This document shows, in pieces, positions 1-39,818 of a stretch of DNA of 64,000 nt; the stretch's first letter is position 1; each line of letters starts with the position of its first letter. Source of the stretch: Botryllus schlosseri. Its lineage: Eukaryota. The notes beneath the pieces are model-generated. The model had not been told where the DNA came from. It was given only the letters and a program-made list of their open reading frames with translations, and did no database searches. Position numbers and translations under genes: made by a program. The DNA is taken from contig CM119372.1 in assembly GCA_051294905.1 (NCBI GenBank), positions 33,048,001 through 33,112,000 on the forward strand, in the 5' to 3' direction.

Positions 1-249
1 CCAACTATCACTTTGAAATTGGCCTATCAATACGCGTATATTGCGATTACCAGCCGCGCGTATGTACCATTTTCAAAGTTAATTTAACGTCACCCAGAAC
101 AGTCTACTATGAGATGCCTACTATAGCCTACTGTGAGATGAAAGTAAATTAAAATCTTGTTAGGTTAGACACGATGTCCAACTATCACTTTTAAATTGCC
201 GTATCATTACGCGTAAATTGCGATTACCAGCAGCGCGTATGTACCATTT

Positions 250-405
250 TGAATTTGAAGTGAACCGATCATTAAATGACTTGGATTGTCGGCTAACCAT
301 GAGCGGTAAATCGCTGTCCAAACACAGGATTTATCATGATTGCATTTACCGCTCATGTTTAGCCGACAATCCAAGTCATCAAATGATCGGTTCACTTCAA
401 ATTCA
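250..405. repeat. Hairpin/MITE-like palindrome with ~60 bp arms, within a dispersed repeat whose units recur in both orientations in 1-1400
   Basis: tgaatttgaagtgaaccgatc... at 250 pairs with ...gatcggttcacttcaaattca ending at 405. Confidence 0.7.
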
Positions 406-459
406 TGTTTCAACATCGTGCCGGGCCTAGAATTGTCTAGAGTAGTCATCGGGAAACGG

Positions 460-974
460 TTCTGGGTGACTTTTTCATACCTGCTAAACATGTCCATTCC
501 CATTACACGAGATCTTCGTCTAAAGGAAACGTCTACTTACCCCAACCCAATAGCAACCTAACTAAGAGATCTATCGACTACTCGGGACCTATCATCTGGA
601 ATGCATTGCCATCACATATCCGTGAATTGCCTTATAATAGATTCAAAAAAGCCCTACTTGATCTCCTCTTGTCGTTACACTAACACTGTTGCCCTACCTC
701 GCCCAGACATTGCTTCATTGATCATTTGCTACCATTTTTTAATTTTTTTTCTATTTTCCTTTCCTAACTAAACACTTTTTTACAGCCAGACTGTTCTGAG
801 TCAAGTGTACCTGTTTGATGCTGGTGTGATTAGACTAGATGACCTTCACGGTCTTATCGATCATTCCTATCTAATACCGAATACTGTGTACGCATATTTT
901 CTGTACCACCATCACTGCCGTTTGTTATGTATTTTGGTTCGATGAAAAATAAAGACTCTCTCTCTCTCTCTCTC
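460..974 (+). mobile_element. LINE 3' end fragment with (CT)n tail
   Basis: Similar to ~43560-44135; ends with aataaa followed by (ct)n. Confidence 0.55.
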
Positions 975-1687
975 ACACTAAATTAATTTTGAAAATGGTA
1001 CATATACGCGCTGCTGGTAATCGCAATTTAGCGTAGAATAATGATACGACAATTTCAAAGTGATTGTTGGACCATAGCAATTTACTGCGTAAATTGCTAT
1101 GGTTGGACAATGGACATCGTGTCGGACCTAGAAATGTCCTAATTTATTTTTATCTCAAAGTATATGATCATTTGAGTATATTAAAACTAGATTGGTCCTC
1201 GGGAAACAATCGAGGGTGTTGCTAAACAAACTTTAAAAATGGTACATACGCGCTGCTGGTATTCGTAATTTACGCGTAATGATAAGGCAATTTCAAGGTG
1301 ATAGTTGGACGTCGTTTCGGACCTACAAATGTTTTAATTTACATCTATATAAACGTATATGATCATTGGAGTATATTAAAACCAGATTGGTCCTGCAAAG
1401 TAAGCATATATTGCGTCAAATTCTTGAAAATTCGCCGATCAATTGAAATATATTATAGTTGCTATCATTTCCGGGCCAGCGATCTTCCCTACTTCACACG
1501 ACAAAGCAGGAAATACCCTGCTCCAAAGACGAGTGACTACACTCACGCCAAAACGCATGACAAAATCTCTAGCCATGACGACGGGCTCAGTATTCTCTCG
1601 AATCTGTCACACATAACCGATCAACTGGAAATCTCATGACGCGTTCATGTGTGTCGTGATACCAAATTGCTTCATGTGAAAAGGCTT

Positions 1688-4600
1688 AATGTATCAATTT
1701 GCCAACTCGAAATGAAACTTACTACACAAACCAAGTTGATTCGTATCTGAATGTGTTAATTCGGTACAATTCTAATTATTTTGAGAAATCTTTTCGTGAT
1801 CTTTTGATTCGACCATAACCCGAATATTACTGACGCCGACTTTCAGCCACATTGAATTATTCGCACATTCCACGCCGCTGTTTTCACACTTATAGAATCA
1901 ATACCAACTATAATTCTACAAGAATCAAGAATCACAAGTATATGCATTATACAGTTATTGTCTTTATCAACACGAAATCAAACTCTTAACAAAAACACGC
2001 ATCTTATCACTCGTCAACTCTATCATGAAAATCCTCGAGTCCTTATCATCAAAAATGTTATAGCGCGGCGTCGGAATCCATTCGTGAGATGTGCTAAAGG
2101 TAAATCCAGATAATCCAAAATGAAATATTTAGACTTTGACATTGCGCGAATTGAAATAGTTTTGACAAACATGACTACCAACTTTCACCCAGTCACATTT
2201 CAAGATTATACTTTGAAACAATCCTTGAAACTGACAACTCTATTCACGACTCCGTTTCCGTTTGTAAAATAGAGTTTCAGAAATACTATCGCGATATTTT
2301 AATGTGTTACTACACACAATAGAATCAATCAATGAAATAACACCTGTTGTAAATATTTCTAACTTGACAACCACTTGTACATACCGCGATCGACTTGTGA
2401 CGCGATGAGTTAAATCGGAATATTTCAATCTATTTGTCGAAACCTTGAACAAACTATCGGGTTATTTTTTGTTGCAATCGAGTGAACGGAAATAGTATTA
2501 CGTCTCGACATCTCGCCGTCTTACCATATTCAAAGAGTCAACCACGAAAACATTGTCAAGTAAATCCGTTACCCGACCAACTCAAGCAGTTAGCCAAGCA
2601 TACACGAGTCCATACAAACACTAAAACCTAAAATCCATAACAAGTTCGGTTGTATTCATATCCCTACACTTCATTTTTTATTCAACTTTAAAAGTCGTTA
2701 CTATTCTGTAAGAAAGAGGAATTACTACGCGGTATATTCTACAAGACAAAGTAATTATTACTCGATATATTTTGTAAGACAAAAGTAATTACTACCCGCT
2801 GCAGGCGACTTGAGCTTAACATAATATGTTTGAGTATACGAGATTCGAAAGTCTGATCGACGTAGTTGCGACTTCATTTCTTACAATCGAACGCTGGTGT
2901 TATATTCAAAGTTATCATACCGTAAACATAAGGATTGACACATCGATTTGACGTATGTAATAGTGATCACGACTTGATTATTAAATTATTCGCGTTAATT
3001 AGACCCGGCGTTGTGGTAAATGTTATGACAGCAACAAACTTTTCAGTACCAATGTTATTAACATATTAAGCTGTAAAACTATGTGTGTCTGAAATGTTCT
3101 TGATAGGAAAATTACTCCACCTTGGTAAAAATCACTCTGCGTATCGCGGATATCAGAAAATATTTCCAGTAACCAAGACTAAAGATGAAACGACAATATC
3201 GGTATTATTACATTCAACAATCAGTAAAATTATTAAAATCTATCGTTTGCGATAAACAGCACTAAAGATGTAATAATTCCAGTATTCATACATTGAACAT
3301 CCGATACAAAATGCTGTATTATCCCGATTCCCAACGAGTCATTGAAACGACTAAGTGTAGAATCAGTATATCACAATATCGTTACTATTGAATCCAACGA
3401 TTTATTGTCGGAATTTGTGACAGAGAATTGAAACATATGCACTTTACAGAGTGTGAAAATATCACTTTGAGTATCGAGTGCCGTTCGAAGCTAGCGATCA
3501 ATTCTTAATCATTTCAGTAACTCCCCATTGTGCGTGCTAAATGTAAAATATCGCGAGGTTATACACTCTAAGACTTTGATTATTGTAAAAGTAAATTGTG
3601 ATATGTTTGTTAGATACATCCAATTCAACTAGAAGTGTCTAGTGCCCAACACTCGTAATATCAAAAAAGTACTTGCTACACTGTTATTTGCTAAACGTGT
3701 TTTGCATTGTTGTTCATTTGTAGTATTGATTGTTCTTGAACCCTCAAATAATAATTCCCGACATGAAACCAAGTCGCTGAAAGTCGTTACCATCACGAAG
3801 ATACAATGTGTACGATGTTTGTCAAATGTGTCCTACATGGCCAACAGAAAACAATTTTCACTCACTCGAAATGAAACCAATGTGATGGTCTCCATTCGAT
3901 ATTTTGTTTGTGTCAAATACTTTGCAATGAACACATTAGCGTGGTTGAGCTTTACATCATCAAGCTGTTATTTGTAAATCAAGATTTCGGTAAACTTGTA
4001 AATGTATCGTTTAACTAACCGACATTTAGTGATTGGGGAACATACCAAACGATACACATCCATCTCCGAAATACTGCGTTGATCTCAATTCCTTTGTCGT
4101 GATAATCGAAGTACATTTGTTTCGATTTCATAAAAACCAACTTTTCTATGACGTGATAAATTTTTGAAAAGTTATGCTTAGAAGATTGTTGCATCTCGCG
4201 AAAAAATAATATACCACTCATATTGATACTGTTACTCCAATGATCGGTATTTTCAAACGAGTCGATTTTCAACCGAGCAAAATTTATTACTTGAGTTGTC
4301 CTGCTTACTATATTTAAATGTAAACTCACCCGTCTTTCAACAACAAAGACATGGATAAAAAGTACGCAAGCAAACACAACAAGTTTTACTTTTGTTGGAC
4401 ACCAATTATTATTCCACGCATCTCATTTCATACTAAGTGTATATGAAAGATATTCATGGCACACGAAAATATTCGATATTCCATGCTACGAACCTACGCA
4501 ATGATTGGTGACGCTTTCCCACTATTTCGATTTAGTTATTTACCCACACACCGTGATTTAGCTGAACATGTAGTTTAGAAAATCTCAAAATCATCGTCTT

Positions 4601-4766
4601 CTTTGTACGGCGTTACTGTGTGTCTCATCCTCGTGGATTCGTGTTAAATTGGACTGAAGTTTGATTTACACGGGACCGATCCCGCGACAACGGATTATGT
4701 GTGTCCAGCTACTTACCGGGGCTATACAAAAAACATGAAAGTGAAGCCGATTTCCCTGATCCTGCC
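1688..4766. repeat. Left arm of giant inverted repeat
   Basis: Reverse complement of 7106-7336 plus 8910-11757. Mirrored ORFs: 2240-2452/10993-11205, 3642-3977/9468-9803, 4015-4377/9068-9430. Only about six substitutions seen by eye. Confidence 0.95.
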
Positions 4767-5142
4767 ATCAATCCATAATCTGCTGTACGTCAATATCTGA
4801 CCACTGCATTGGGACTGAAAGACACAAACAACATTTCTTTATTTTTTCACAAAATTTAATGATCACATTTTACATCGTTACACTGACATGACTAGTCATG
4901 TGCCTTGCCAGTCCATTTTTTCGTATAAATCTTTTCGCACAAATATGACATTCGTAGGCCCTGATGTCGGCGTGAATATCCAAATGCGACTTTAATTGGG
5001 TCTTTAGATGAAAATCTTTTCCACAGATCGGGCATTTGTGGTCTTTTTCATCTTTATGGATACCCATATGTCGTCTGAGCGAGCCTTCACGACCGAACTC
5101 TTTCCCGCAAATTTCGCACTTATGAGGCCTGGCGTTGACATG

Positions 5143-7001
5143 TGTAGCCGTTCGGTCGTAGTCCTCGCTATGACGCTATCTAACTGAATGCGGCTAAATT
5201 ACTTCAGGTTCGACTGGACCCAGAGACACATTGCAGATTCGACGGATATATTACAACGAAGGCAGGCACAATAAACACATCAATACTTCCAATCCAATCC
5301 AATCCAAGACTTAACACAGCAACTCCATACAATGACACTCCAATACCAGCTCCATACCAAACCCAAACTACATACCAAAGACTAACTCAAATCACTTCCT
5401 CTTTTCAATACCGCATGTTACCCTACGCATGACTGGTCTTACAACCAGATAGTCCGGAGTCATTATGGCTCCGGAGCCGAGCGGTTACACATCCCCGTTC
5501 CCAAGTTGAGTGATCTAGTAGTAAAGATCACTCACAAGCGACAAGACGGAGCACAAAAAAAACAGAGTATAAAAATTGCAAGAATATGAACAAAGAAGAA
5601 ATATGATCAAGCAAGATTAGATATTACAACATCTCACAACCGCCAATATTACAATAGTTCATTCAATTGACGACAATACACGATATCATAGGCACAATCC
5701 ACCAACAACGTACATCAGTAGTCATTTTCCACAACATAACGCCATGTGCTAAAACCAAGGCTACAACATAACACCATGTGCTAAAACCAAGGCAATTACA
5801 GAAACATAACAAGAGGTATCAATACCCGTAAACGATAGCCGTTCATTATCAAATCAAGATCACAGTTCCAACATCTCAACATCAGGGGCGAAGTCCAAGT
5901 CCGCTGTCAAATCCCAATGTACCACCATCTCATTCGAACATCTCTCGAAGTAAAAGCTTTACGGTGTGACGGCTCCTTTATATTCACATTGAAACGTTCA
6001 ATGGCCAGCTCACAGTATACCAACGACTCGAAAGTTCCAGGTACATCCCAGACGTTTACTTCTCTACCAACCAAGCCCTTGTTTCCAATTGACGAAGCCA
6101 CTGCAGCACTTTCACCTCCACAATCCTCAGTCAATTGTTCCTCCATCACACCTCCTCCACCTTGACAATCATCATCATCATCATCATCATCATTATTATC
6201 ATCAACTATCTCATCACACGACTTCAATGGTACCATGACTACCATCTCAGATCCATTATCATCAACAGGTGCAGTAAATATCTCTTCAGAAACCACCACT
6301 TTGCTCTCACATGCCAACACATCAACGATTTCCTCTACATGCGGTTTTTCGAAATCCTCCTCTTCCAGGGTCACATCAATAACAGAGTTTCCAACAGACG
6401 AGCATACCGACACATGCTCCAAGCCACCACGTGCCAAATTATCCATTTCCCCAACAGCACGAGTGTCCAATAACTTCACAATTCGTCGTGCTTCCTTCCC
6501 AAGCATTCCTTTTGCTAACTTGTTAAAAAACCGTGCAAGTGCAACTTCTTCTTTCCTCTTCAATAACTGTCTTGCTTCAAGTCCATCGCATCCGTCTCTT
6601 ACTGCAAGCGGCATCTCTATACCGGATCCAGCATCAGGCTGCGTGCTCGCCATTTGTAGCCGTTCGGTCGTAGTCCTCGCTATGACGCTATCTAACTGAA
6701 TGCGGCTAAATTACTTCAGGTTCGACTGGACCCAGAGACACATTGCAGATTCGACGGATATATTACAACGAAGGCAGGCACAATAAACACATCAATACTT
6801 CCAATCCAATCCAATCCAAGACTTAACACAGCAACTCCATACAATGACACTCCAATACCAGCTCCATACCAAACCCAAACTACATACCAAAGACTAACTC
6901 AAATCACTTCCTCTTTTCAATACCGCATGTTACCCTACGCATGACTGGTCTTACAACCAGATAGTCCGGAGTCATTATGGCTCCGGAGCCGAGCGGTTAC
7001 A
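5143..7001 (-). mobile_element. Non-autonomous LTR retroelement (Gypsy-like), 347-bp LTRs
   Basis: Apparently identical TG..CA LTRs at 5143-5489 and 6655-7001; 4-bp TSD CATG (5139-5142, 7002-7005). On the - strand, PBS TGGCGAGCACGC follows the right LTR and purine tract GGGAACGGGGATG precedes the left LTR. Confidence 0.92.
5907..6653 (-). CDS. Acidic orphan protein (248 aa) inside the LTR element
   Basis: Open ORF whose ATG overlaps the PBS; poly-Asp tract; no gag or pol motif recognised. Confidence 0.5.
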   Translation of the reverse strand: MASTQPDAGSGIEMPLAVRDGCDGLEARQLLKRKEEVALARFFNKLAKGMLGKEARRIVKLLDTRAVGEMDNLARGGLEHVSVCSSVGNSVIDVTLEEEDFEKPHVEEIVDVLACESKVVVSEEIFTAPVDDNGSEMVVMVPLKSCDEIVDDNNDDDDDDDDCQGGGGVMEEQLTEDCGGESAAVASSIGNKGLVGREVNVWDVPGTFESLVYCELAIERFNVNIKEPSHRKAFTSRDVRMRWWYIGI

Positions 7002-7105
7002 CATGTGCATTCAGGTGATCCTTTAAACTATGGGTTTGAGTAAATGTTTTTCCACACACCCAACATTTGTGTTTTTTAATGACAAAGTGAGTAGCCACGT
7101 GATTG

Positions 7106-10100
7106 GGCAGGATCAGGGAAATCGGCTTCACTTTCATGTTTTTTGTATAGCCCCGGTAAGTAGCTGGACACACATAATCCGTTGTCGCGGGATCGGTCCC
7201 CTGTAAATCAAACTTCAGTCCAATTTAACACGAATCCACGAGGATGAGACACACAGTAACGCCGTACAAAGAAGACGATGATTTTGAGATTTTCTAAACT
7301 ACATGTTCAGCTAAATCACGGTGTGTGGGTAAATAATCACGAAGTATACTTGATTTGCGCGATGTCTTGTTATTTTCATAGAGACACAGGTTGTGGTGTG
7401 TGGTTTATCGATTCAGAGTTGATATCCGGAACCGGTTAATACTTTCTCGGGGTTTCCGATTTCTAACTGCATGGGGCTGTATGTATTGGTCAATAAAGAG
7501 TGACACAACATAGTAAACACAAGTAACCCGGTGTTGTTAGCCCGATGGAAACGTAAATTCCTCGATTTCCGACTGCTGTTATCTGTGCGCCAAACATTTA
7601 CCCAAGTCGAGGCGGTGTTTTATTCAGACACTTTGACTCTGGAAAACCTAAAGCGCGAACCTGGACATCGCGGACATGTCGAGAACTATTGTCCAATTTC
7701 CAAAACACGCATTTCGATATACAAGAGCATATTGCATGTGGTTAACCGATGATATTGATGTGATACGACTGATGGGGGTATACTCTGAAACCGGTTGTCC
7801 ATGTATATTTTCGTTACTGTTCGTTGTAATCAATTTCCAACTATCGTCAATAGGCTACAACAAATATCAAATTGTCAGGTGTGTTTGTCAGATTTCAAAA
7901 TGAAAATGGTTTTGTTATTCTAGGAAAAGCTAGATAACCAAGAGAAAATGCATTGTTACACTGGGTAAACGCCAGATCTCCAAAGGAAAATGATATTTTT
8001 ACTCGGGTAACGACTGACCTCCAGGTGAAAATGGAAATTTTACTTGAGTAGGTATCGTATGTTTAGTGTCGTTGGTATTGTTAAACGTTGTCGCCGGTAG
8101 CTGTTGGTATACTATTACGAGTGTGAAAAGGATTGACATGACCTGTGTAGAGTATCGCGATAGTAAACATATTTTTGGTGCGACGAAACAAGATCGTTGT
8201 TCAAATGTTAATGTATTTCGATTACCGAGTTACTGTACAATAGAGATGACTTTAAATTAGAACGGGCTGTGTACTTCGATTACAATCACAAAACCACATG
8301 TAAATCTATTCACACAACTCGATGATGTTGATATAGTGTTACTAAAATGAATTATTACCTATTTACACAACATAAAAATAACAATTCATGTCGTAGTAAG
8401 TAGGTTTCGTGAACTCATACTTGATGAAAACGAGTGGTGACAAGCGTGCGTTTGTGTTTGAGTGAAAAATAATTATTTAGAGTAGTGACATTTTGTGACC
8501 AATGAATGCAAATCGATCATGGTATTACAATATACGCTTTTGTCAACATAACGACTTGGCGCCGCGCATACAAACTTTTGTGTAAACAACTCTGATGTTA
8601 CTGTTGGTACTAGTGCTGTGTTGAACTATTTGGTTCTTAAGACACATGAACACCCATTCAGACAATAAAGGTCTTGAGGTAACGAAACAGTTTGTGGAGT
8701 CAAACCAACCATTCTTTATTGTCGTAATGTGAGAATATCGAGTAAAGTTGATTACTTTGTGTGATGTAAATATCTTTCGTACTTTTGTAAGAGTTGTGGG
8801 GGTCTCATGAAAAAGTAACTAGTTGACAAAAACAAAATATTGAATGAAGGTTCGTCTGTTGTTTTCATAAGTCAAGAGAGTGAAAATTGTTGTTGTTGTT
8901 TTTGTTACACTAAATCGAAATAGTGGGAAAGCGTCACCAATCATTGCGTAGGTTCGTAGCATGGAATATCGAATATTTTCGTGTGCCATGAATATCTTTC
9001 ATATACACTTAGTATGAAATGAGATGCGTGGAATAATAATTGGTGTCCAACAAAAGTAAAACTTGTTGTGTTTGCTTGCGTACTTTTTATCCATGTCTTT
9101 GTTGTTGAAAGACGGGTGAGTTTACATTTAAATATAGTAAGCAGGACAACTCAAGTAATAAATTTTGCTCGGTTGAAAATCGACTCGTTTGAAAATACCG
9201 ATCAATGGAGTAACAGTATCAATATGAGTGGTATATTATTTTTTCGCGAGATGCAACAATCTTCTAAGCATAACTTTTCAAAAATTTATCACGTCATAGA
9301 AAAGTTGGTTTTTATGAAATCGAAACAAATGTACTTCGATTATCACGACAAAGGAATTGAGATCAACGCAGTATTTCGGAGATGGATGTGTATCGTTTGG
9401 TATGTTCCCCAATCACTAAATGTCGGTTAGTTAAACGATACATTTACAAGTTTACCGAAATCTTGATTTACAAATAACAGCTTGATGATGTAAAGCTCAA
9501 CCACGCTAATGTGTTCATTGCAAAGTATTTGACACAAACAAAATATCGAATGGAGACCATCACATTGGTTTCATTTCGAGTGAGTGAAAATTGTTTTCTG
9601 TTGGCCAGGTAGGACACATTTGACAAACATCGTACACATTGTATCTTCGTGATGGTAACGACTTTCAGCGACTTGGTTTCATGTCGGGAATTATTATTTG
9701 AGGGTTCAAGAACAATCAATACTACAAATGAACAACAATGCAAAACACGTTTAGCAAATAACAGTGTAGCAAGTACTTTTTTGATATTACGAGTGTTGGG
9801 CACTAGACACTTCTAGTTGAATTGGATGTATCTAACAAACATATCACAATTTACTTTTACAATAATCAAAGTCTTAGAGTGTATAACCTCGCGATATTTT
9901 ACATTTAGCACGCACAATGGGGAGTTACTGAAATGATTAAGAATTGATCGCTAGCTTCGAACGGCACTCGATACTCAAAGTGATATTTTCACACTCTGTA
10001 AAGTGCATATGTTTCAATTCTCTGTCACAAATTCCGACAATAAATCGTTGGATTCAATAGTAACGATATTGTGATATACTGATTCTACACTTAGTCGTTT

Positions 10101-11757
10101 CAATTACTCGTTGGGAATCGGGATAATAAAGCATTTTGTATCGGATGTTCAATGTATGAATACTGGAATTATTACATCTTTAGTGCTGTTTATCGCAAAC
10201 GATAGATTTTAATAATTTTACTGATTGTTGAATGTAATAATACCGATATTGTCGTTTCATCTTTAGTCTTGGTTACTGGAAATATTTTCTGATATCCGCG
10301 ATACGCAGAGTGATTTTTACCAAGGTGGAGTAATTTTCCTATCAAGAACATTTCAGACACACATAGTTTTACAGCTTAATATGTTAATAACATTGGTACT
10401 GAAAAGTTTGTTGCTGTCATAACATTTACCACAACGCCGGGTCTAATTAACGCGAATAATTTAATAATCAAGTCGTGATCACTATTACATACGTCAAATC
10501 GATGTGTCAATCCTTATGTTTACGGTATGATAACTTTGAATATAACACCAGCGTTCGATTGTAAGAAATGAAGTCGCAACTACGTCGATCAGACTTTCGA
10601 ATCTCGTATACTCAAACATATTATGTTAAGCTCAAGTCGCCTGCAGCGGGTAGTAATTACTTTTGTCTTACAAAATATATCGAGTAATAATTACTTTGTC
10701 TTGTAGAATATACCGCGTAGTAATTCCTCTTTCTTACAGAATAGTAACGACTTTTAAAGTTGAATAAAAAATGAAGTGTAGGGATATGAATACAACCGAA
10801 CTTGTTATGGATTTTAGGTTTTAGTGTTTGTATGGACTCGTGTATGCTTGGCTAACTGCTTGAGTTGGTCGGGTAACGGATTTACTTGACAATGTTTTCG
10901 TGGTTGACTCTTTGAATATGGTAAGACGGCGAGATGTCGAGACGTAATACTATTTCCGTTCACTCGATTGCAACAAAAAATAACCCGATAGTTTGTTCAA
11001 GGTTTCGACAAATAGATTGAAATATTCCGATTTAACTCATCGCGTCACAAGTCGATCGCGGTATGTACAAGTGGTTGTCAAGTTAGAAATATTTACAACA
11101 GGTGTTATTTCATTGATTGATTCTATTGTGTGTAGTAACACATTAAAATATCGCGATAGTATTTCTGAAACTCTATTTTACAAACGGAAACGGAGTCGTG
11201 AATAGAGTTGTCAGTTTCAAGGATTGTTTCAAAGTATAATCTTGAAATGTGACTGGGTGAAAGTTGGTAGTCATGTTTGTCAAAACTATTTCAATTCGCG
11301 CAATGTCAAAGTCTAAATATTTCATTTTGGATTATCTGGATTTACCTTTAGCACATCTCACGAATGGATTCCGACGCCGCGCTATAACATTTTTGATGAT
11401 AAGGACTCGAGGATTTTCATGATAGAGTTGACGAGTGATAAGATGCGTGTTTTTGTTAAGAGTTTGATTTCGTGTTGATAAAGACAATAACTGTATAATG
11501 CATATACTTGTGATTCTCGATTCTTGTAGAATTATAGTTGGTATTGATTCTATAAGTGTGAAAACAGCGGCGTGGAATGTGCGAATAATTCAATGTGGCT
11601 GAAAGTCGGCGTCAGTAATATTCGGGTTATGGTCGAATCAAAAGATCACGAAAAGATTTCTCAAAATAATTAGAATTGTACCGAATTAACACATTCAGAT
11701 ACGAATCAACTTGGTTTGTGTAGTAAGTTTCATTTCGAGTTGGCAAATTGATACATT
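7106..11757. repeat. Right arm of giant inverted repeat (contains ~1.57 kb, 7337-8909, absent from the left arm)
   Basis: ggcaggatcaggg at 7106 pairs with 4766; gcaaattgatacatt ending at 11757 pairs with 1688. Confidence 0.95.
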
Positions 11758-12283
11758 GATTGAATATTCTCATAATTCTTATCGCGCAACTAAAGTCAGC
11801 CACTGTTCGAAGTGTCAAAACATATAGCGACCACCAGAAAGTGTCAAATTGTTGGTTTTCGAATCACCGTCTGCGACGGCTCTGTGACAAACTAATTACC
11901 GAAATATTACCTTGTGAGTGATCGGTATGTCTTTAACACCAAGTCGCTAAAAATGGTTATGTCCGAGACATTATCTTGTTAGCGATCGCGGGATTTGCAA
12001 TCTATTTTACACTTTTTGAAGTGTTAATTTACGAGCGCGGTTATTTGTTGCTCGCTTTTGTGTCACTGCTGAATACTGAATACTCCTGAATGTGATAGTA
12101 CTGACTGGATTAGTGTAATAATCGATACGATAGTGCGCGCTCGAAATCCCCACATCAGGTCGCGTTTCCAAAACGGATGTATTTAGTGGGTCACAAATAT
12201 CAAAACGCGGTCGCGATAATCCTTTTCAAAATCGCGCATTGCACTGCGGTTTAGTGAATTTCCTGTTTAGCGATACTCGTGAC

Positions 12284-13578
12284 CAGAGATGGCCACAGTC
12301 CGGTTCAGGAGCCGGAGCCGGAGCAGGATTTTGATGAATTTTACTGTGGCCGGATCGGAGCCGGATTCTGAAACTGCCATATGAGCCGGATTTAAACAGG
12401 ATTTGATATTCATAACAAATATTGGGTGATAAAAGGTTCAAGATATCTTATATTCAATGAAAAAAGCTGCTTCGATATTATTTCCGTAGTTAAATCATAG
12501 CCTTTATAAGCCTTATAAAGGCTATGGTTAAATGCATTCACTGCTATGGATCAAGCCCAGGCTTGTTCCGACAATAAATGACAACGTTGAAATCGCTGAT
12601 ACCGGTCACGTCGTTGAAATGCGTAAGCAACATAAGTAAAGTTTCTGCAATGATGAGATTACTGCTGGATGAGATGAGGACGAAGGCAGGCTCCAGCAAG
12701 CGAGCTGCAGAAGTGTTTGTTTTCGAATTAAGTTGCTCCTCAGATATTGATTCTTATACTTCCTGTTCATCAGCCATTAGGGTACTTGATATCAGTTGTC
12801 AGGATGACAGAAAAGCGAGGTATCGGTATTGTTGCCGAATGCAGAGGTAACTGGTGGTTCTGATTTCTGATGTCATTTGGAATGATTGTGTGGTGTGGTA
12901 ATGTATGAATATATGCTGGCATGGTCAATTGGTCATGTTTATGATTTCGGAAACACTAGAACTGAAGTACCACCGGTACTCTATGATTGATTGTGCACAT
13001 CATCATGCTGATTATATAATATTATATATATTTCCTATTCATTGCTGCTCTGTCAAGTGATCATTTTGATTGATTCATCCATTTTGTTTGATACATGTCT
13101 GTTCTGTGAAAATTTAGTTCTATTCTTCAGTAGTACTATAGGCCTAGTTGTCTTGGCCAAGTCACAATGCACAAATCTGATTTTGTTGTTGGCATCATGG
13201 CATGCCTGGGTTACTATGTTTACCCCCTCCGTAAAGCAACTAATATTGCTTTCTCTGTTCTCACAGTCTTTTTAGCTCATTTCCCCTGCCTAGTTCCTAC
13301 TACTCGCATTTATATTCAAGATATATACCGTACCTAACATTATTGATTCGAAATGTGATATAAATAAACCCTTGTAAGGCATTACTTGATACTAATTTGG
13401 TGATTATAATGTTCATATCTGTTTTGCAGGCTATATTTAATGTGAAATAGCACTAAAGCAATAGCAGGATTTTTTCGGATCCTAATTTTGTTGCTCAACT
13501 GTCGGACTCCGAAATCCTATTTGACTGTCGGATCAGGACGGATACGGATTCCCAAAATCTGGAATCCGCCCATCTCTG
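12284..13578. mobile_element. Non-autonomous hAT-type element
   Basis: Termini CAGAGATGG...CCATCTCTG; 8-bp TSD CTCGTGAC (12276-12283, 13579-13586). Shorter relative at 50902-51170. Confidence 0.9.
12496..12526. mobile_element. 31-bp perfect palindrome with 7-bp TSD (P-type footprint or minimal MITE)
   Basis: catagcctttataag-c-cttataaaggctatg flanked by GTTAAAT on both sides. Confidence 0.7.
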
Positions 13579-14098: not shown

Positions 14099-17000
14099 TG
14101 TTCCGACGCGTCACTGAAGTGAATGCGTGGCGCTTTGTCAGGTGTCGGATCCTGTCTGCTGCACACTAAATCTGGCTCGGACTAGTCAAACTGTTGCGTA
14201 TCAACTCTCTTCGGTTGTCGAATACAAGCAGTCCAAATGAATATACGGAACAGCTTGTTCAAAATATGAAGATACGTAAATGGTGAGATTCGCAAGATTG
14301 CTTGCTCGTCCGATAACAGTTGAAAAAGAGAATGAAACAACAGCAACAGTGAAATATAAAGGTAAACGAGAACGGACGGCGCAACAATTAAATTAACCAA
14401 TCACCAAATCAAACAAGAGCAATTAAGAGTTGTCGTGGAGAATAACGGAATGCAAATAAAGGACAGTAACTAAAACATGACTCGTCAAAACACTCCCCCA
14501 CTTGACCGGCTGTAATCGGTCAACAGATTCTTTCATCATCTATCCAAATCCCAAAGACGAAGGAATGGATGTAGAATTACCGCCGAACCCGCTGATGTCG
14601 AAACAATCGCTTTTAATCGGTGATAGCTTCAATGAATCAGCTAGATCACGAGTTACAAAGCTCTTACGGGAAAAAGGGTCAAAGGCGATTTTAACCGCTT
14701 TACCATCACCACTGTGGTTAATCCGTCCCAACGCAGTAGGCAAGAATGTGTTTGAATCAGAATCCCGCAATGCAGAGGTGGAAACGTCAATAGTTGTTAC
14801 CATACACTTGGAGTCGCTCGATGGTTCCGCAGAAACGTGCAGCAATTTGTGGTGGGTTTTCCCACAACCAGTGACGGTACAACGTTCCCTGCACTGATGA
14901 AAGTGTTTCGGGTGGCCTTTGTGTCCCTTCGGTGATAAGCATTTAAAACACACTTTCCCAGGCTTCATAACCAAGTCGGCCAATCGCTGGGGTGGGTTTA
15001 ATTTCATAAATTTCATACAATCTTTCAACAGATGAGGTTTTGTGCAGTAGGTGCATGAAAGCGGGACAGACTGAATGACGAGAGAATGAGCAGAAAAGGA
15101 ATTATCAGCTTTCTCGATTCCAACACTAACCTGTTTGCCTTCATGTGGGGACTTTTCACGTGCGTCAGCAGGGCGACGCCAATTCTTGGACTTCTGCAAA
15201 GATTCCATCGTTGCCAACTCCGTTGATAAAAATTCAAACAGAAGATCGGAATCAGGAACCTCGTCGGCTTCGATCAGGGGACTAGTTTTCCTGATCCAAC
15301 GCTCAAGCAACGTACCCGGCAACTGGGACTCTAGTACTTGTGTAAAGAGTTGGTCCCAAGAGACGTCATACTGCGATAAAATAGCCTTTTTGGCAGTAGC
15401 GGCATCGAGAAGTTGTCTGACTTTGTCGATCTTGAATTCTACTTTCTCACCTTGCAGTAAGTCTTCGATGTGATTTCTCACGATCGCTTGCTTCTTTCCG
15501 TACCTCTTAAGAACGGCTTCCACTGCAGGCTCATAATTCACTGCCGTTGATGAGAAACCATTGAGAAGGCCGGATGACGATCCTTTAAGAGCCGCCTTTA
15601 AATACGAAATTTTGTAGAAGCGACTGACCTTCGGATTCTTATGAACCAACGGCTCGAACGACTCCCAGAATTGAGGAAATGTCAAAATGTCACCATTAAA
15701 TGTAGGCGGCACAATCCCACTCGGTAGAGATCCAGCGGCGTGTTCGGCTTCCTCGGCAGCTTTAAGTGATGAGGACTTTGATTGCGCAAGAGGAATGCGA
15801 GCAAAATAAATTTCTTTTGATCTTCTCATTCCATCAATGATTTCGGTCTTGACATCACCATCGTCAAGGCGATCGATCTTGGAATCCACGAATGTCTTGA
15901 GATCGGTCATTGATATTTCTACCGACCGTATGAAGACGTTGATTCCTTCGGCAGATGTGGAATACTCATATTTATTTTTAAGCGCTTCCAAAGACTCGAC
16001 GACTTCGGCATTCATGCGTCTGAATTTCCTTATAGTAACATCAGGTAGACATGAATCTCCAATGTTTGCCGATGGATGGTTTTCGGGCTTCTTGACAGCG
16101 TCTTTCAAGAATTCCCCCAAGTCTTTTGTTAACTGCTGGCGAATTTCTTCCAGTTGCAGTTGGAACCGACTTTCGCTTTCCTCACGATCCAGCACCTGTC
16201 TCTTCCTGAGCTCTTCGAGCTGCAACTGAAACTTGCGATTGGCAGCTTCACGATCTAATTGCTGCTGCTGGCGATCAGCTTCACGATCTAATTGCTGCTG
16301 CTGACGATCGAGATCTTGCTGATGCTTCATCATCTGAAAAAGCATAACCAGTTCAGATGGACTCTCAGTAGTGCTCAGTGGTGAGGACTTCGGCTCTGTC
16401 TTCTGTGAAGGCTTGGTCAAATCACGGATTTTCCTTAATCGCTCCGTTAATACCGCCTTGCTCCCACTTGTAGTTTCGCCAAGATCTTGTAATTCGGATC
16501 GTAAATCGTCGACCGTCATCTTAGCTAATGACTTCCAAGTCGGTGCTAGGGTTGGAGACTTGCGGGAATCCGTAGGAGATTTCACAAAAGACATCACTCA
16601 AACGTATGGAAAATATATAATTATTAGCAGATTTAGTGCCAAGCAGAGTCGATCGATCTTCGTTGGGCAGCAGAGTCTTGAATGTAGACTAATACCATGC
16701 GGCGCCTAAATTGAAGAGCGTATCGACAATATCGGCTTTAATTGGCTTCTTGCGAATTGTTCCGACGCGTCACTGAAGTGAATGCGTGGCGCTTTGTCAG
16801 GTGTCGGATCCTGTCTGCTGCACACTAAATCTGGCTCGGACTAGTCAAACTGTTGCGTATCAACTCTCTTCGGTTGTCGAATACAAGCAGTCCAAATGAA
16901 TATACGGAACAGCTTGTTCAAAATATGAAGATACGTAAATGGTGAGATTCGCAAGATTGCTTGCTCGTCCGATAACAGTTGAAAAAGAGAATGAAACAAC

Positions 17001-17151
17001 AGCAACAGTGAAATATAAAGGTAAACGAGAACGGACGGCGCAACAATTAAATTAACCAATCACCAAATCAAACAAGAGCAATTAAGAGTTGTCGTGGAGA
17101 ATAACGGAATGCAAATAAAGGACAGTAACTAAAACATGACTCGTCAAAACA
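14099..17151 (-). mobile_element. BEL/Pao LTR retrotransposon, internally deleted (no RT/RNase H/integrase)
   Basis: 394-bp apparently identical LTRs at 14099-14492 and 16758-17151 (TG..CA); PPT GTGGGGGAG on the - strand; Gag ORF between them. Confidence 0.92.
14540..16597 (-). CDS. gag: BEL/Pao Gag with N-terminal SAP domain, DUF1759-like core, three Cys/His knuckles and a truncated protease
   Basis: LAKMTVDDLRSELQDLGETTSGSKAVLTERLR (SAP-like); PTFNGDILTFPQFWESF..KISYLKAALKG (DUF1759-like); CTYCTKPHLLKDC, CFKCL..H..C, CTVTGCGKTHHKLLH; AFDPFSRKSFVT. Confidence 0.88.
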   Translation of the reverse strand: MMSFVKSPTDSRKSPTLAPTWKSLAKMTVDDLRSELQDLGETTSGSKAVLTERLRKIRDLTKPSQKTEPKSSPLSTTESPSELVMLFQMMKHQQDLDRQQQQLDREADRQQQQLDREAANRKFQLQLEELRKRQVLDREESESRFQLQLEEIRQQLTKDLGEFLKDAVKKPENHPSANIGDSCLPDVTIRKFRRMNAEVVESLEALKNKYEYSTSAEGINVFIRSVEISMTDLKTFVDSKIDRLDDGDVKTEIIDGMRRSKEIYFARIPLAQSKSSSLKAAEEAEHAAGSLPSGIVPPTFNGDILTFPQFWESFEPLVHKNPKVSRFYKISYLKAALKGSSSGLLNGFSSTAVNYEPAVEAVLKRYGKKQAIVRNHIEDLLQGEKVEFKIDKVRQLLDAATAKKAILSQYDVSWDQLFTQVLESQLPGTLLERWIRKTSPLIEADEVPDSDLLFEFLSTELATMESLQKSKNWRRPADAREKSPHEGKQVSVGIEKADNSFSAHSLVIQSVPLSCTYCTKPHLLKDCMKFMKLNPPQRLADLVMKPGKVCFKCLSPKGHKGHPKHFHQCRERCTVTGCGKTHHKLLHVSAEPSSDSKCMVTTIDVSTSALRDSDSNTFLPTALGRINHSGDGKAVKIAFDPFSRKSFVTRDLADSLKLSPIKSDCFDISGFGGNSTSIPSSLGFG

Positions 17152-19150
17152 GATGGCTATACTAGCACCGGTTGAGTGATCCCTATACCGAAAAGGGTCA
17201 CCGGTTCAAGACGAGTTTCGAGGCACTTGTCGAGAGATCCCTATACTCATAAGGCACCGGTCGGGTGGAAGGGGGGTCTGAAAGGGTCACCGGTTCAGGA
17301 CGAGTTTTCAGGCACATCACCACCGCAGCCTATATCTGAAAGGGTACCATCATCACCGCACCCATAAGAACACATGGCGACTCATCACAGATCCCGTAAG
17401 AATACATGACAGGCACATCATCACCGCGGCCTATAGCAAACAAGGCGAATCACGACCACGAGTTTTCCATACGAGTCACCGCCGCAGCCTATACCCACAA
17501 CGTTAGCATGCGACCGATTACTATACTGAAAAGGTTTACCGTGCCACCACAAGACATAAGAGCCGCTTGCGACCCCCGCCATAAGACCTAAGAACCGCTT
17601 GCCACCCCCGTCATAAGACACAATAGCCGCTCGCCACCCCCGCCATAAGACATAAGAGCCGCTCACCACCCCCGCCATAAGACGCAATAGCCGCTCGCCA
17701 CCGCGCCCATAAGAAATAAGAGCCGCTCGCCACCCCCGGTTTCCCAGCCCCTCGCCACCGCGCCCATAAGAACCCCACGCTAGTTCGCGACCGATCATAC
17801 ATACTACTATCATGTAACTGTATGGCAAGCACAAGCACATGAACAGACCAGGTGATGATCCGACTAATATAATCCTATTGTTATCTGAGTATATTTATAG
17901 TTCCGACAGGGACACTCAGAGCGAGCGAGAGAGAGAGAGAGTTAGTTAGTTGGGCACCCCTAGCAAGTTAATCAGAGGCATTGGTTATCAGCACATTCGA
18001 ACCCAAACCCTGATCATGATTTGGCAGTTATTTATATATTTCCACTATACATTGGTCTGTGATTATTCCAAATAAAAGTGATCGTCGTAGGATTAATCAA
18101 TCGAAAGCCACTTTCAATCTGTTCAGGTCGCTGAAAATACATGAAATCATCCTTAGAAATAGGGAATGGATGGCATTGCATTGAACTTTCGCAGCGCGAT
18201 GATATAATTAGTACCGGTACACTATTAAGTATTCGCGCTGCGCCCCAATTGTTTCATGCGATGTGTCGAGAGGAAAACAACGTTTTTTGTGCGATTCGCA
18301 GTGTTAACCAAGCAAAATGTGTATTATGAACTGTTGTAAATTCAATATGAAAGGCTTCAATGACTGTATGAGTGTATTCGACGACTATCAGGCTCCACTT
18401 TCACAGCTATCTCGTGCCTTTTGAGTGAAATAGAGGATCTGGGTTTTTCTGGGTTTATTTCGCCTCCACATCTGGGTTTTTCCGAAATAGCCCAGTGGCA
18501 TCTCTGGAGTTGATTAGGGAGTTGGCTGAGAGCGTGGCTGAAGATGGATGTGAGTGAGTATGTCTCTGTGTTTGGTAGCCTGAAGTATGAGAAGTCGGGC
18601 ACATCAGCATGAAGTTGTTGTAGTAGTGACAGAGGAGTGAAGTAGCAGGTAGTTGGCATTGTATTCGTAGGCTAGAGGTGGATGTATCCTGTCGGAATCT
18701 ATGTTCAGATAGATTGACTGGGGCATGGAAAAATAACGGACGATGCTGTGCGAGCATCTGCGGAGTGATATTGTACCCTAGTTAGTCCCTCGCCTGTAGC
18801 TGGCAAGGCTGCTGCTGGTGTAGGTTTAGGCCTATAACTGTCGGAATACGCGGTTTGTGTGAACTTGTATGCTGCTGTTTGTAGGCCTGTGTCTCGTATT
18901 GGTAGGTCGTCTGTGTATACGTTGTCAGTTTGTATGTGTCGCTATGTAGTGTGAGAATATGAGTCTAGTGTGAAACGCCGTTTAGAGTGCTGTGTGGTGG
19001 AATATAATCTTATTATTACCGTATGGACTTGTGTACTGTCTTAGGCGTTTCGTGTTACGAGCGCGGAGCAGGCGGCGACCCGCTTCCCTGCTAGGTACGT
19101 AACGCCGTATCAGGGTCGCTACATTAGATAACTACTAGCATCATCAAGTT

Positions 19151-20030: not shown

Positions 20031-20714
20031 TCCATAAAAATGAAAAATTCGAGGCTAATTGTGGGGGTTGCAGGGCCATGAGCGAAATAAAATTTATATT
20101 TTCGTAATCAGTACAGCGTCCGCTTTCGATTGATACCCGTTTCATCAAATTTGATGCTCGACAAGCCGGTCAAAAATTACCATCAAATTGCCTTCAGCCA
20201 AATGGAAAATGTGACGTAGACCAATTTCACTGAGCCATGAGATTTGCTTGTGTCCACACCATATAGTACACTATGGTGTCACCTACCCCTAAATTGTACT
20301 GTACAATGTAGAAGTCTTGCATAAGCCACAAGGAAAGAAACAACTCGAAAATAATACGCTTATTGATGACAAATAATATCGCGAGTCTTTGGAGTTATGA
20401 ATTAACACAATATTTCTAGCATACAATTAAAATTCGCTTTCTTTTTCGGGAGTAACCAGGATCAAAACATCACCGTCGAGCTAAGACCAGCTGAGCTGGG
20501 ATCTAATGCTGAAATTTCAATATCCGAAGCAACCGATTCCTAATCAAATTCTTCAGACGCCGCATTCACCGAAGACTTTTTTCAATCCCATACAAAAAAG
20601 GCCTTCCTCTCCGCCGACCCCACAACTCTGGCCGAGATTCAAAACAGACTATGTCTAGGAAGCGCGCAAAACCGAAGGATGACGTCGATCCCGCTATCGT
20701 GAATTGCTTTAAAG

Positions 20715-22036
20715 CAGGGGTTCTCAACCTGGGGGGCGCGGGAGGCTCTCAGGGGGGGCGCGAGAAATTTTTGTCAATGTCTGTATAAATTGTGACTAAA
20801 CATGCGTTTCACAACCATTCTGAAGATACGATTATTGAAGATTAAACTTAATTCGTATTCTAGAAAGCTTGACAAACTCAAACTCCAGCAGTCGCGCTCA
20901 ACGGAGTATAGGCTGACTTCAACTTCATTTGAGCAAATTTCTGATATTCTTTGAAGATTTAGAGAAATTCCTACGTGCAAGTCATTCATTACTTTATAGC
21001 TTTGGCAGTAGCCTAAATCTCTGTGCGCTAGGTAGCTGTTGTTGATAGCTGGCGAACTGCACTGCCTAAGACAGACTTAGATGCAATATAGGTTGCCCGG
21101 TTTCGCCCTCAATTTGGCTATAAATCAACACAATTTAATTCATTTCCAAAACTGATCAAATTTAGCATGGCAGGACAGAACGACGCCGTGCTCTCTGTAG
21201 TCACTACCAGCATCAGGATTGGTCTCAGTGCAACCTACCTTGAAATTGATTGATGTCCTTTTCAATGTTTTTTTGTTATTTTCAAACAAGTTTGGGGAAA
21301 TTTGTCAGCAACGTAAAAGACTAAACAACTGTAATGCGGATTCAAAATTGGCGTAAGATATACTTTATGTATACTATTATATCAGGGGTGGGCAGCCCGT
21401 ATGGCCGCATGCGACCGCGTAGAAGGGAATTTGTGCGGCCGTCGACGCCTAATTCAATTAGTATGTGTTTGCAGCCGTAGACATGCAAATTGCAATTACG
21501 AATTCACTCCCGAATTTTCGAGGGATTTTATTTAATCTTGAAATTTTCTTCGCGCTCCGCGCAATTCAACAAAACTTCATTTTTCGATCTTAATGCAGTA
21601 GCGCCCTTCTCAACTGGAGCAGGAATGGGAATCCTCAAGCAATAACAATTCATTCGCGGCTCTGAAAAATTTTCGCGCTCCGCGCGACAATACGTACTAC
21701 CATCAACTATTCATGACATTGCCACTCGCGATTTCGGTGCGTACAATAGGCCGTTGTGAAAAGTAGAATAGTCCGGAGTTCACCGGGAATGGATATGGAC
21801 AGTTTACCATAGGTACTTTGCGTCCAGATCGTTCATTGCGGCTATGCCCTGGAATGCGGCCTTAGGCTACATAAGTTGTCGAAATGCGGCCATGATTAGC
21901 AGGAAGGTTGCCCACCTCTGTGTTAGATGATGTGCTCTTTTTGACATGACGATAAATGTAAGGAGGGTCAGGGGGGGCGCGATTTTTCTGACTATCGCCA
22001 AGGGGGGCGCGTGTCAAAAAAGGTTGAGAACCGCTG
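20715..22036 (+). mobile_element. hAT MITE carrying a nested hAT MITE (21383-21920)
   Basis: Termini CAGGGGTTCTCAACC...GGTTGAGAACCGCTG; TSD CTTTAAAG. Inverted copy at 55532-56862. Confidence 0.9.
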
Positions 22037-22852
22037 CTTTAAAGAGTAAACTGATCCGGATGAACATTTTGTTCGATAATACATCGCCGCCGCTGAACTG
22101 AAATCTCTTGACGAGCCTATGAGATCTGAAGCCAAATTCAAAAATCACCACTATATTTACAAATTGAAGACGTCAAATTGAAATGAAATGAAGGAGACAG
22201 AGAAACCGGGTCTCTAAGGTTCAAGTACGGTGAACTCAAGGTGTCGGATATATTGGAGAGAATAAAAAGATTCGTAGAATGGATTATTAATGACTTTCAT
22301 CCGGGAGTATCTCAGGAACTACCCGGTACCAAATGGTTCTAAAACTCTGTGCTCGTGTATTGTGTCTCAATGCTCGAACGCTCTTTCATCTCAATTGCTG
22401 CTGTTATCGTAGGCTACTACACAGGCATTGCAAAAGAACATTATCAGGCAGTGTTTCTGTACTTTGATTATTTTGACATATGTAGCCACTAGGGATGGAA
22501 AAAACGAATCGCTGATTCGAATTCGATCCTAATCATGTTTCATACCATATGATTCAAATCGGGCGAATCGAATCAACAGAAATTATGATCAATTCCTGGA
22601 TTGTTTTTGTTGTTGGCCAAAGTGGTGACGTTATTTTCTTGTCATCAGCAAGTTTTTCTTACATGGGCATTGGGCATGGACAATTTCAGCTTGAATATTG
22701 GACAGATGAAAAATGTTAGGGACCGGCGTGCTAAACTAACAAGGAGTGCGTTTATCATCACGCTGTATAACTGCTAGGGGTGAGAGTATTCAATAAACTT
22801 GTGTGTATGGACATCGAACTTAATTAGATAGAATCAAACAATGACACTATGG

Positions 22853-28010: not shown

Positions 28011-28895
28011 ATACCAACCGGCCTGCCCGAATACGGGCCCTACATTTTCCAGGACACAACCTCAATCAGCTGTACCGGTAGATATATGATTACGTGAGGA
28101 CTGGGCATGGGCATGCAGAGAAAGGGTAAACAAAATTATGGCAACATACATGCAATTCCCGATATTATTGACTGACTCAGTATAATGAGTATAAAAAATA
28201 TCGCTCACAAGTAGCGGTGAATACGTTATCCTGATGGGGGCCTGGGGGGCGAAGACTGCCAAAAACATCACGTACGATGCATGCACTACACAATTTCACA
28301 TGCCTATAGTATCCAGACGAAATGGATACTCGTACCAATGATGCTCGCTTAATGATGTAATGAGAGATGTAACATTAGAAACATCAACAGCAACGAATCC
28401 ACATCCCCAGGCACTCGAATCTGCCCAGCCCGAGTGGCAGCTAAATTCTCATCGCATGTGATTTGTGACGTCAGACAGAACAATAGATCAAGCGTAGCTG
28501 ATGTTTTGTTATATTCCTAAGTGTGTCATCAGTCATCATGCTCGTAGCTCGTGCACTTTGCAGTACTACATTTCAGCAAGGATTACGGTACTAATGAAAT
28601 ATTGTACTTTGCCTGAGCATCGCCGCTAACTCTGAAGCGATATGATTAGTTAAAATTTGCATCTCTAATCTCGAAGACGCTATGAACTGTGCAATGGAAA
28701 TTCATCATAGGCTGTAGGCCTGAAGAAACCGAGCACTTCTCTGACTCGACGAAGCATCTAACCTCGGCAAAGAAGTGAAAGAACTATACGTGGTGGATCT
28801 TACTGAGTTGTGGCAGTTTTCCTATGTACGGACAGCCCGCTGTGTGAAATTTTCAAGTTCAAGTCAATACAATACATAACTGGATACGGTATGTA

Positions 28896-38765: not shown

Positions 38766-39818
38766 TTTGGCTTATTTTCTGCACAGCAAATTCTGCATCA
38801 AAGCACAATCAATGTCAGACGTTGAACACAAATGCTGACATTGACTTGTGACGGTAACGGAACTTTATGGGATATAGGCTAGACCGTACTGCATAGTAAA
38901 TGATTAATGGTACCAGACGTAGCTTACGCGGTGATCGATTGAAAATTAACTCCAATTCTGAATGAGGGTATGAGGCACTATAATAAACCTTCAATCCAAA
39001 TATTAAGAATATCTAGAATAGCATGACGGAGCTAGCGAGTATTCACTTCGGAAAACCCTATTGCACTTCTACTACGACATTGATTGCTGAACATAAGTGC
39101 GCCAACCGCCTGTGCTGGATATCAATGACTAACAAGCGCCACAGCGAGAGGCGCAGACCCGAGAAAAAAGTAGACTCACCGTCTCGACCAAATATGGCAA
39201 TCACATAGTTTTCGTAACTTGCGCATTACTAAAACGCGACAGGAATGCTGGTATATTACAGAAAATGACACGGTGTGATCATTGATCGTTTATCGTATAG
39301 GAATTATCTTTTCGAAACAAAGCAGAAAGAAATTTGATAGGCTTCGGCTGAAATCTCTTTGCTTTTGTTAATGATATGGCTCAATAGCTTTGCCAAATGT
39401 TGCTTTCGGTTACATTCTTGTCCTGTAGCAATGCGGCTACTGGTTGGAATTGAAACAAATTTGGTGTGCAGGCTTTAATTAGGTAACCTAACAATTTTGT
39501 CCAGTAGCCAGTACAATTTGAGAAAAAATGTCATTTTTAAATACCCCTCTACACCAGTGATTCCCAACCGCGGCCCTCAGATAGCCTTCTTGCGGCCCCA
39601 AAAATATAGTAAGAAATCGATTTAGGACAAAAAAAAATAAAACTTATATTTATAAACTACTCTTGCTTGGCTTGGCCTCTGTAGTTTTTAATTATAGAAT
39701 TGCAGGAATGTTGTGAGTAGACTGCTAAGTTACGTCACTGCTGTTTCAATGCAATGTGCCCTAACTTTCCAGTTGAACGAGCAGTAGCTATAGATATAGG
39801 AAGTGTCTACTCGTCCGG

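Follow-up and report, generated by a model that had tools for sequence, protein, structure and literature searches.

What kind of sequence lies behind a near-perfect palindrome of about 10 kb in the genome of Botryllus schlosseri, and does the palindrome really end where its pairing first seems to stop? The window considered here is the whole stretch of 64,000 nucleotides (G000:C2:33048001-33112000) from a eukaryotic assembly of 495.5 Mb in 219 contigs; coordinates marked C2 are those of the contig and all other positions follow the numbering of the window. A first-pass annotation had described two reverse-complement arms at 1688-4766 and 7106-11757 around a zinc-finger open reading frame (ORF), and had proposed either a giant fold-back mobile element or an inverted duplication of one end of a large element. 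The stretch 1688-11757 is probably the inner part of a 20,494-bp, decayed copy from an abundant family of non-autonomous giant palindromes, which use Maverick/Polinton termini of the same genome, a kinship that went unnoticed in that annotation.

Arms and true limits of the palindrome

Comparison of the window with itself, by a repeat finder and by direct alignment, confirmed the inverted arms and found exactly six mismatches in 3,079 paired nt (left-arm positions 1927, 3316, 3340, 3837, 4240 and 4671), in agreement with the earlier count of about six; the spacer left after removal of a long terminal repeat (LTR) element, estimated before at ~480 bp, measures 476 bp. The limits at 1688 and 11757 did not stand, since inverted pairing continues without a single difference from 11758 to 12283, and the upstream twin of this stretch also rules out that the copy was symmetrically truncated at 1688/11757. 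Sister copies align past the same limits, and the right arm can be followed to 11974 and from there, with interruptions, up to a terminus at ~17808. On the other side the left arm is split at 1687/1688 by a 2,680-bp transposon, a dispersed repeat whose matches stop exactly at window 1687. The whole element extends over C2:33045315-33065808, from C2:33045315 (window -2685) to window 17808, and carries the end motifs (AGT)2/(ACT)2. Its left flank reads ...ATCATG followed by AGTAGTATGTATGATCGG and its right end ...CATACATACTACT followed by ATCATG, which is a perfect 6-bp target-site duplication (TSD). The terminal 209 bp (17600-17808) are 99% identical to inverted C2:33045315-33045523, and the outer arm lengths agree (left 1,693 bp, right 1,703 bp net of insertions); the left arm upstream of the window was traced only by the coordinates of search matches and by two short pieces of sequence (60-66 bases).

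The extra 1,572 bp of the right arm at 7337-8908 might be taken for an insertion. They belong to the family itself, being colinear with inner-arm sequence of its other members, so that it is the left arm that has suffered a deletion, with its junction at 4536/4537. Four nested transposons (2,680, 1,859, 1,295 and 3,053 bp) account for the excess length of this copy: without them it measures ~11.6 kb, and ~13.2 kb, the normal size in the family, once the deletion is added back. The anatomy of a decayed family copy is fully resolved at this locus, and its parts are as follows.

C2:33047008-33049687 (the right-hand 1,687 bp are window 1-1687), no strand assigned: 2,680-bp transposon with inverted ends AAAGCCTATTCACATGA... 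and ...TCATGTGAAAAGGCTT, 195-bp units and an ORF remnant like that of a long interspersed nuclear element (LINE)
1688-4536, plus strand: middle portion of the left arm, non-coding, with ~90-94% identity to other members of the family
4537-4766, plus strand: innermost portion of the left arm (231 nt), peculiar to the zinc-finger subfamily
4767-7105 (2,339 bp), no strand assigned: unique centre or loop, 476 bp of its own sequence and a nested LTR element
4870-5136, minus strand: C-terminal remnant of the zinc-finger ORF with three C2H2 fingers, cut by the LTR insertion
5143-7001, plus strand: non-autonomous LTR element of 1,859 bp with TG..CA ends, LTRs of ~347 bp without mismatch and TSD CATG at 5139-5142 and 7002-7005
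7106-7336, minus strand: right arm, innermost 231 nt, pairing with 4536-4766 with one mismatch
7337-8908, minus strand: right-arm stretch of 1,572 bp missing from the left arm, colinear with ~4349-6433 of the C1 copy
8909-11757, minus strand: right arm, middle part, pairing with 1688-4536 with five mismatches
11758-12283, minus strand: right arm, outer part, inverted twin at C2:33046482-33047007 (100% identity, 0/526 differences)
12284-13578, no strand assigned: dispersed repeat of 1,295 bp in the right arm only, matching at 40 of 40 scored places with 87-98% identity
13579-14098, minus strand: right arm, subterminal repeat region, homologous to ~370-590 of other copies
14099-17151, minus strand: second LTR element, 3,053 bp, with 394-bp LTRs that are 100% identical
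17152-17808, minus strand: right terminal region with a 32-bp tandem array at 17547-17738; the terminus ...GATCATACATACTACT ends at 17808
17809-17814, plus strand: right copy of the 6-bp TSD ATCATG, whose left copy is at C2:33045309-33045314

The arms are non-coding. Their longest ORFs do not exceed 135 aa in the window copy or 143 aa in the sister copies (six elements were read whole), and the searches support the earlier statement that the arms hold no polymerase, integrase or capsid motif, since similarity to none of these was found in them. Translated searches (tblastn) with all ORFs of at least 80 aa from an autonomous Maverick detected no remnant of its proteins in the arms, the only matches falling in the terminal repeat region. 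Rfam gave no family at threshold over the whole window, and Tandem Repeats Finder reported within the arms of the window copy one 94-bp array per arm and the 192-bp terminal array, nothing more.

Near-identical arms around a short unique spacer are the usual product of a local inverted duplication by break repair or replication fold-back, and this was in essence the second proposal of the first-pass annotation, an inverted duplication of one element end formed in place. It conflicts with the termini: one TSD, ATCATG, and Maverick end motifs enclose the whole unit, and because this single perfect duplication and these canonical ends flank both arms together, the element must have arrived as a finished palindrome. 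The 13 other loci described below have the same architecture in different flanks, and a local duplication is accordingly a very improbable origin. When only their inner parts are seen, such elements are liable to be misread as local inverted duplications, as happened here.

Fold-back chimeras do occur in long-read libraries, and the palindrome might in principle be an assembly artefact from such reads. The two arms, however, are set around a unique centre and differ by six substitutions, the 1,572-bp deletion and three arm-specific insertions, and the family shows TSDs throughout. Moreover, all 30 bins of 1200-9100 have contigs from the run that is probably the source, and a contig of 100 nt lies on 4466-4565 without mismatch and spans the deletion junction with 71 + 29 nt, narrowly missing the 31-nt rule applied for bridging. 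An artefact is thus scarcely credible.

The palindrome family and its Maverick/Polinton-like ends

A genome search for further copies, which the first-pass annotation had suggested as a check, returned with the left arm as query at least 102 matches, with 40 out of 3,356 first-look candidates scored, at ~88-94% identity, mostly as inverted pairs a few kb apart. All 13 of the other loci examined proved palindromic (8/8 fetched by arm match and 5/5 reached through the central ORF), with arms of ~5-7 kb that are 98-100% identical, the arms of the five loci reached through the central ORF being 99.2-99.9% identical. An intact member measures 12.5-15.5 kb and consists of two non-coding arms of ~5-7 kb and a unique centre of 0.75-2.8 kb, as in the following copies.

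C1 copy: arm 6,686 bp, identity 99.64%, centre 921 bp
C7 copy: arm 6,932 bp, identity 99.96%, centre 827 bp
C6b copy: arm 6,205 bp, identity 99.98%, centre 753 bp
C6a copy: arm 4,862 bp, identity 100%, centre 2,799 bp
C5 copy: arm 6,236 bp, identity 99.82%, centre 2,697 bp

These five copies start with 5'-AGTAGT..GATCG and end in its complement (...ACTACT-3'), and perfect 6-bp TSDs (CATGTA, CACGGT, CACGGA, AGCGCT and CACGTC) were found in 5/5 fully flanked copies. The proposal of a giant fold-back mobile element is therefore upheld, for the palindrome belongs to a multi-copy family with TSDs. At least 150 copies of ~13 kb would amount to at least 2 Mb of the 495-Mb genome, and 1,198 candidates obtained with the central frame suggest possibly several times more.

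Arm divergence follows a pattern like that of LTRs, with 0-1.6% within copies and ~3-20% between them, which fits arms that were identical at integration. In six copies the arms differ at 0-18 positions in 4.9-6.9 kb (0-0.4%), in the C2b copy at 64 in 4,904 (1.3%), evenly spread, and in one further copy at 89 in 5,414 (1.6%), 76 of these within the innermost repeat-rich kb. The same family could also have had its arms kept alike after integration by intrachromosomal gene conversion, of the kind known from plastid inverted repeats and the palindromes of sex chromosomes, in which case the window copy would be much older than its 0.2% suggests. Its four insertions and 1,572-bp deletion, next to only 6/3,079 differences between the arms and 0/526 further out, speak for conversion, as do the C1 and C10 copies, where the mismatches are concentrated towards both ends of the arm, in its repeat-rich inner and outer kb, and the middle is nearly clean. 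On the other hand, the LTRs of both nested elements (~347 and 394 bp) are free of mismatches, so that these insertions are young too; none of the three arm insertions (0/3) nor the deletion (0/1) has been copied or erased between arms; and the 64 mismatches of C2b lie evenly over 4.9 kb, as they would under clock-like divergence. Taken together, upkeep by conversion seems the less likely reading, and arms that were identical, or nearly so, at integration are tentatively preferred.

The ends of the palindromes point to Maverick/Polinton elements. A search with the terminal 398 bp found paired ends 8-30 kb apart, among them those of an autonomous, gene-dense Maverick of 17.4 kb (C3:9620390-9637770, TSD GTGGTT; hereafter the C3 Maverick) with terminal inverted repeats (TIRs) of ~655 bp at 94% identity (663 aligned columns). 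It encodes a 359-aa integrase with rve domain and chromodomain, an A32-like ATPase frame and a 1,212-aa frame that scored 0.96 in a feature comparison against DNA_pol_B_2 clusters. This frame did not match Pfam DNA_pol_B_2 even at E<=10, and a search of PDB sequences gave nothing useful; it has SLY-, KxxxNSxY- and YxDTD-like stretches, which we take to be A/B/C-like motifs, and with the feature score these motifs make it a putative polymerase B. A single C2H2-like finger lies at about residue 303 of the same frame. The first 21 nt of the C3 Maverick and of the C1 palindrome are identical, and the outer ~520 bp of the palindromes are 79-91% identical to the C3 Maverick ends, which the terminal region of the window copy matches too.

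A search with the integrase found 113 matches at E<=1e-30, most of them 95-100% identical and with an open 359-aa frame, so that at least ~80 integrase frames at >=95% identity are present genome-wide; this indicates, as judged from such copies, a young, high-copy Maverick lineage in the genome and thus an ample supply of potential helpers. One open 359-aa integrase frame, 99% identical to that of the C3 Maverick, lies ~43 kb past the end of the window (G000:C2:33154900-33155976). As for the target, CACG or CATG lies inside five of seven TSDs (CATGTA, CACGGT, CACGGA, CACGTC and ATCATG, the exceptions being AGCGCT and GTGGTT), which hints at a target preference of insertion.

A fold-back DNA transposon of some cut-and-paste superfamily, with its own transposase and merely resembling or sharing Maverick ends, would account for the arms (bar their ends) and central genes, which have no counterpart in the C3 Maverick; very long inverted arms and terminal tandem repeats also recall classical fold-back elements. 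Such an origin is improbable in view of the 21 identical nt, the ~520 bp at 79-91% identity and the equal TSD length of 6 bp, and no transposase ORF was found in the six elements read whole. Additionally, end motif and TSD fit the published definition of Mavericks: according to Barreat and Katzourakis (2021; PMC8097293), vertebrate Mavericks have (AGT)2//(ACT)2 ends, perfect 6-bp TSDs, TIRs of 46-1,447 bp (mean 402) and lengths of 12.7-24.6 kb, and Goubert et al. (2022; PMC8969392) give the same hallmarks in brief.

Set against these hallmarks, the palindromes resemble Mavericks in the end motif, the perfect 6-bp TSDs, the presence of TIRs, the overall length range and the homologous outer ~520 bp. 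They differ in that their inverted repeats of 5-7 kb make up ~80-95% of the element, four to five times the longest in PMC8097293, and in that the centre holds an orphan gene of 90-93 aa or a zinc-finger ORF. Neither the ORF listing nor tblastn found in them a gene for polymerase B, integrase, ATPase, protease or capsid. Because the terminal features of Mavericks (6-bp TSD, (AGT)2//(ACT)2 and end homology to an autonomous copy) are present and their coding features are absent, the palindromes are best regarded as non-autonomous users of Maverick ends.

Genes of the loop and nested insertions

In the common subfamilies the loop holds a small central gene, with a conserved Met start, a ...GSHI end and a length of 90-93 aa; all 150 places that were scored, out of 1,198 candidates, contained the central frame at 86-100% identity, and five unnamed proteins of this gene are present in a public protein collection. 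Between subfamilies the ratio of non-synonymous to synonymous divergence (dN/dS) is 0.23-0.36 at dS 0.7-1.2, and by these values the gene is under purifying selection; among the closest copies dN/dS is uninformative because changes are too few. The protein itself remains an orphan. A 107-aa central frame had no Pfam match, nor had P0001 and P0004, and a protein-atlas look-up of the 107-aa frame gave only unnamed bacterial clusters with low recognition, which is uninformative. A profile search for the central protein among 1.84 billion representatives returned its own cluster and one WD40-repeat protein only (E=9e-7, five short stretches), which was rejected as a relative and judged a repeat-driven chance match. 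An AlphaFold model of the 93-aa protein, from six sequences, had a mean predicted local distance difference test score (pLDDT) of 36 and is unusable.

In the window copy the loop holds the zinc-finger ORF instead (4870-5175, minus strand; three C2H2 fingers, zf-C2H2 E=3.2e-17), with a fourth finger at ~7005-7100 (minus strand) on the far side of the 1,859-bp LTR element. The 372 bp of this centre to the left of that element occur at four other loci with 84-94% identity, three of which also have the inverted 231-nt inner-arm pair, and at one of these three, the C12 locus, a family terminus lies ~6 kb further on. The zinc-finger frame is open over 242-243 aa at two sister loci (C1:2000505 and C12:17861548), over 92 and 109 aa at two more and over 101 aa here. 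On the strength of these matches the zinc-finger ORF is the central cargo of a small subfamily of roughly five members, in which it replaces the usual gene of 90-93 aa. The zinc-finger cargo proposed in the first-pass annotation is consequently genuine as a central cargo common to about five copies; what the window copy retains of it is a broken remnant (101 as against 242-243 aa), split by the LTR element and shortened. A subfamily centred on a zinc-finger ORF shows, as far as such comparisons go, that the loop can exchange its gene.

Logan contigs of two samples of the same organism (X5 and X6) had zero depth at >=98% likeness in bins 4632-4895 and 7008-7271, and single-copy flank bins had depths of 17-77. 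Other individuals may lack the centre of the window copy or have a divergent one, with the proviso that contigs cannot prove absence. No RNA data set was among the sequencing runs listed for the sequence; in ~6% of the reads of one raw RNA run, coverage of 1200-9100 fell almost only on nested LTRs, mainly those of the 1,859-bp element, and no read fell on the zinc-finger ORF in that sample.

Among the nested insertions, the 1,859-bp LTR element has an acidic ORF of 267 aa (5907-6710, minus strand) without Pfam match, and 54-bp ends resembling its LTRs recur at many places in the genome with 96-100% identity. The 3,053-bp LTR element has as its sole ORF a gag-like frame of 685 aa (14540-16597, minus strand) with SAP and DUF1759 domains, as in a BEL/Pao-type gag, and no pol. 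The 195-bp units of the 2,680-bp transposon also make long tandem arrays on C16, C17, C18, C11 and C1, which would be a satellite sharing its unit with that transposon.

Elsewhere in the window, an inverted repeat pair of 1.35 kb (20713-22048 and 55520-56864) is 94% identical over a distance of 33 kb, and a direct pair of 379 bp (59440-59818 and 61318-61696), 99% identical and 1.9 kb apart, is probably another LTR element. A protein of 389 aa with a PDZ and three LIM domains is encoded in one uninterrupted frame at 37602-38771 (minus strand), possibly an intron-less gene or a retrocopy, and an open frame of 754 aa at 28848-31112 (plus strand) had no Pfam match.

Mechanism, related systems and meaning

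Since the palindromes encode neither polymerase nor integrase, autonomous Mavericks whose ends match theirs would supply both in trans, and mobilisation in trans by Mavericks is, on present sequence comparisons, probably how they spread. The arms would be identical, or nearly so, at integration and diverge afterwards as LTRs do. Such identity is expected if a protein-primed linear form replicates with a long self-paired displaced strand, or if it arose by a snap-back copying error; in protein-primed replication with strand displacement, one strand would be set free and could fold back on itself as a stem of 6 kb. That the sizes vary little and lie near that of the helper may be due to a limit on packaging. 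It is possible, and proposed here tentatively, that the palindromes are heritable satellites of an active endogenous Maverick virus: snap-back-type linear genomes replicated by the protein-primed polymerase of the helper and inserted by its integrase, their arms re-equalised in each round by way of the self-paired displaced strand, their length limited by packaging and their loop serving as a slot for swappable cargo.

Several points weigh against the Maverick-based explanation as a whole. Shared ends are the only link to mobilisation by Mavericks. Beyond the outer ~520-650 bp the arms have no DNA or protein similarity to the C3 Maverick, the one autonomous copy read, and an origin of the palindromes by snap-back from a Maverick genome is unsupported for that reason. 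The TIRs of the C3 Maverick are themselves only 94% identical, so that identical ends at integration are not a general rule, though tandem repeats may inflate this difference. Four insertions and a deletion at 0.2% arm divergence fit gene conversion as well as they fit youth. Finally, the structure rests on the assembly and short Logan contigs, those of X5 and X6 missing the two central bins given above at >=98% likeness.

Incomplete particles of adenovirus reportedly contain genomes with long inverted repetitions, an observation credited to Daniell in 1976. According to PMC13506859, such palindromes are what marks out snap-back genomes among defective viral genomes. Like these genomes, the elements described here are almost wholly palindromic and keep the ends that the helper needs for replication and integration without its genes; additionally, protein-primed replication, the mode of adenovirus, is predicted for the Maverick helper. 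Unlike them, the palindromes are integrated and heritable, occur in at least 150 copies, fall into several subfamilies and have a gene on which purifying selection acts, and beyond the ends no derivation of their arms from the helper can be recognised. The snap-back link is thus drawn as an analogy.

Classical fold-back elements such as FB of Drosophila have very long inverted arms, largely made of tandem repeats, and a TSD of 9 bp. The palindromes share with them the very long inverted arms with tandem repeats towards the ends, a centre that varies and a near or complete lack of coding sequence, and differ in their 6-bp TSD, their Maverick end motif and arms of mostly unique sequence. The palindromes of sex chromosomes have arms of kilobase length that are more than 99.8% identical on either side of a unique spacer, undergo arm-to-arm conversion and are single-locus structures, whereas the family of the window copy consists of transposed units with TSDs in many copies. 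Full-text literature searches, with subscription journals and Repbase outside their scope, gave no published description of palindromic or long-armed non-autonomous Mavericks; the phrase "non-autonomous polintons" was met once, for Tlr1.

Non-autonomous partners of Maverick/Polinton elements have barely been described, and this locus contributes a resolved decayed copy and a subfamily with a different central gene. Elements of this build readily give rise to hairpin RNA and cruciforms and cause trouble in assembly. If the palindromes are indeed heritable satellites of a Maverick virus, the divergence of their arms would be an insertion clock like LTR divergence, and the short loop would be the only site for asymmetric information, occupied usually by the orphan gene of 90-93 aa and in the subfamily of the window copy by a C2H2 gene of 243 aa. 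The predictions that follow, arms identical at the start and a gene held in the loop alone, are open to genome-wide checking, and the family informs how protein-primed, virus-like elements replicate.

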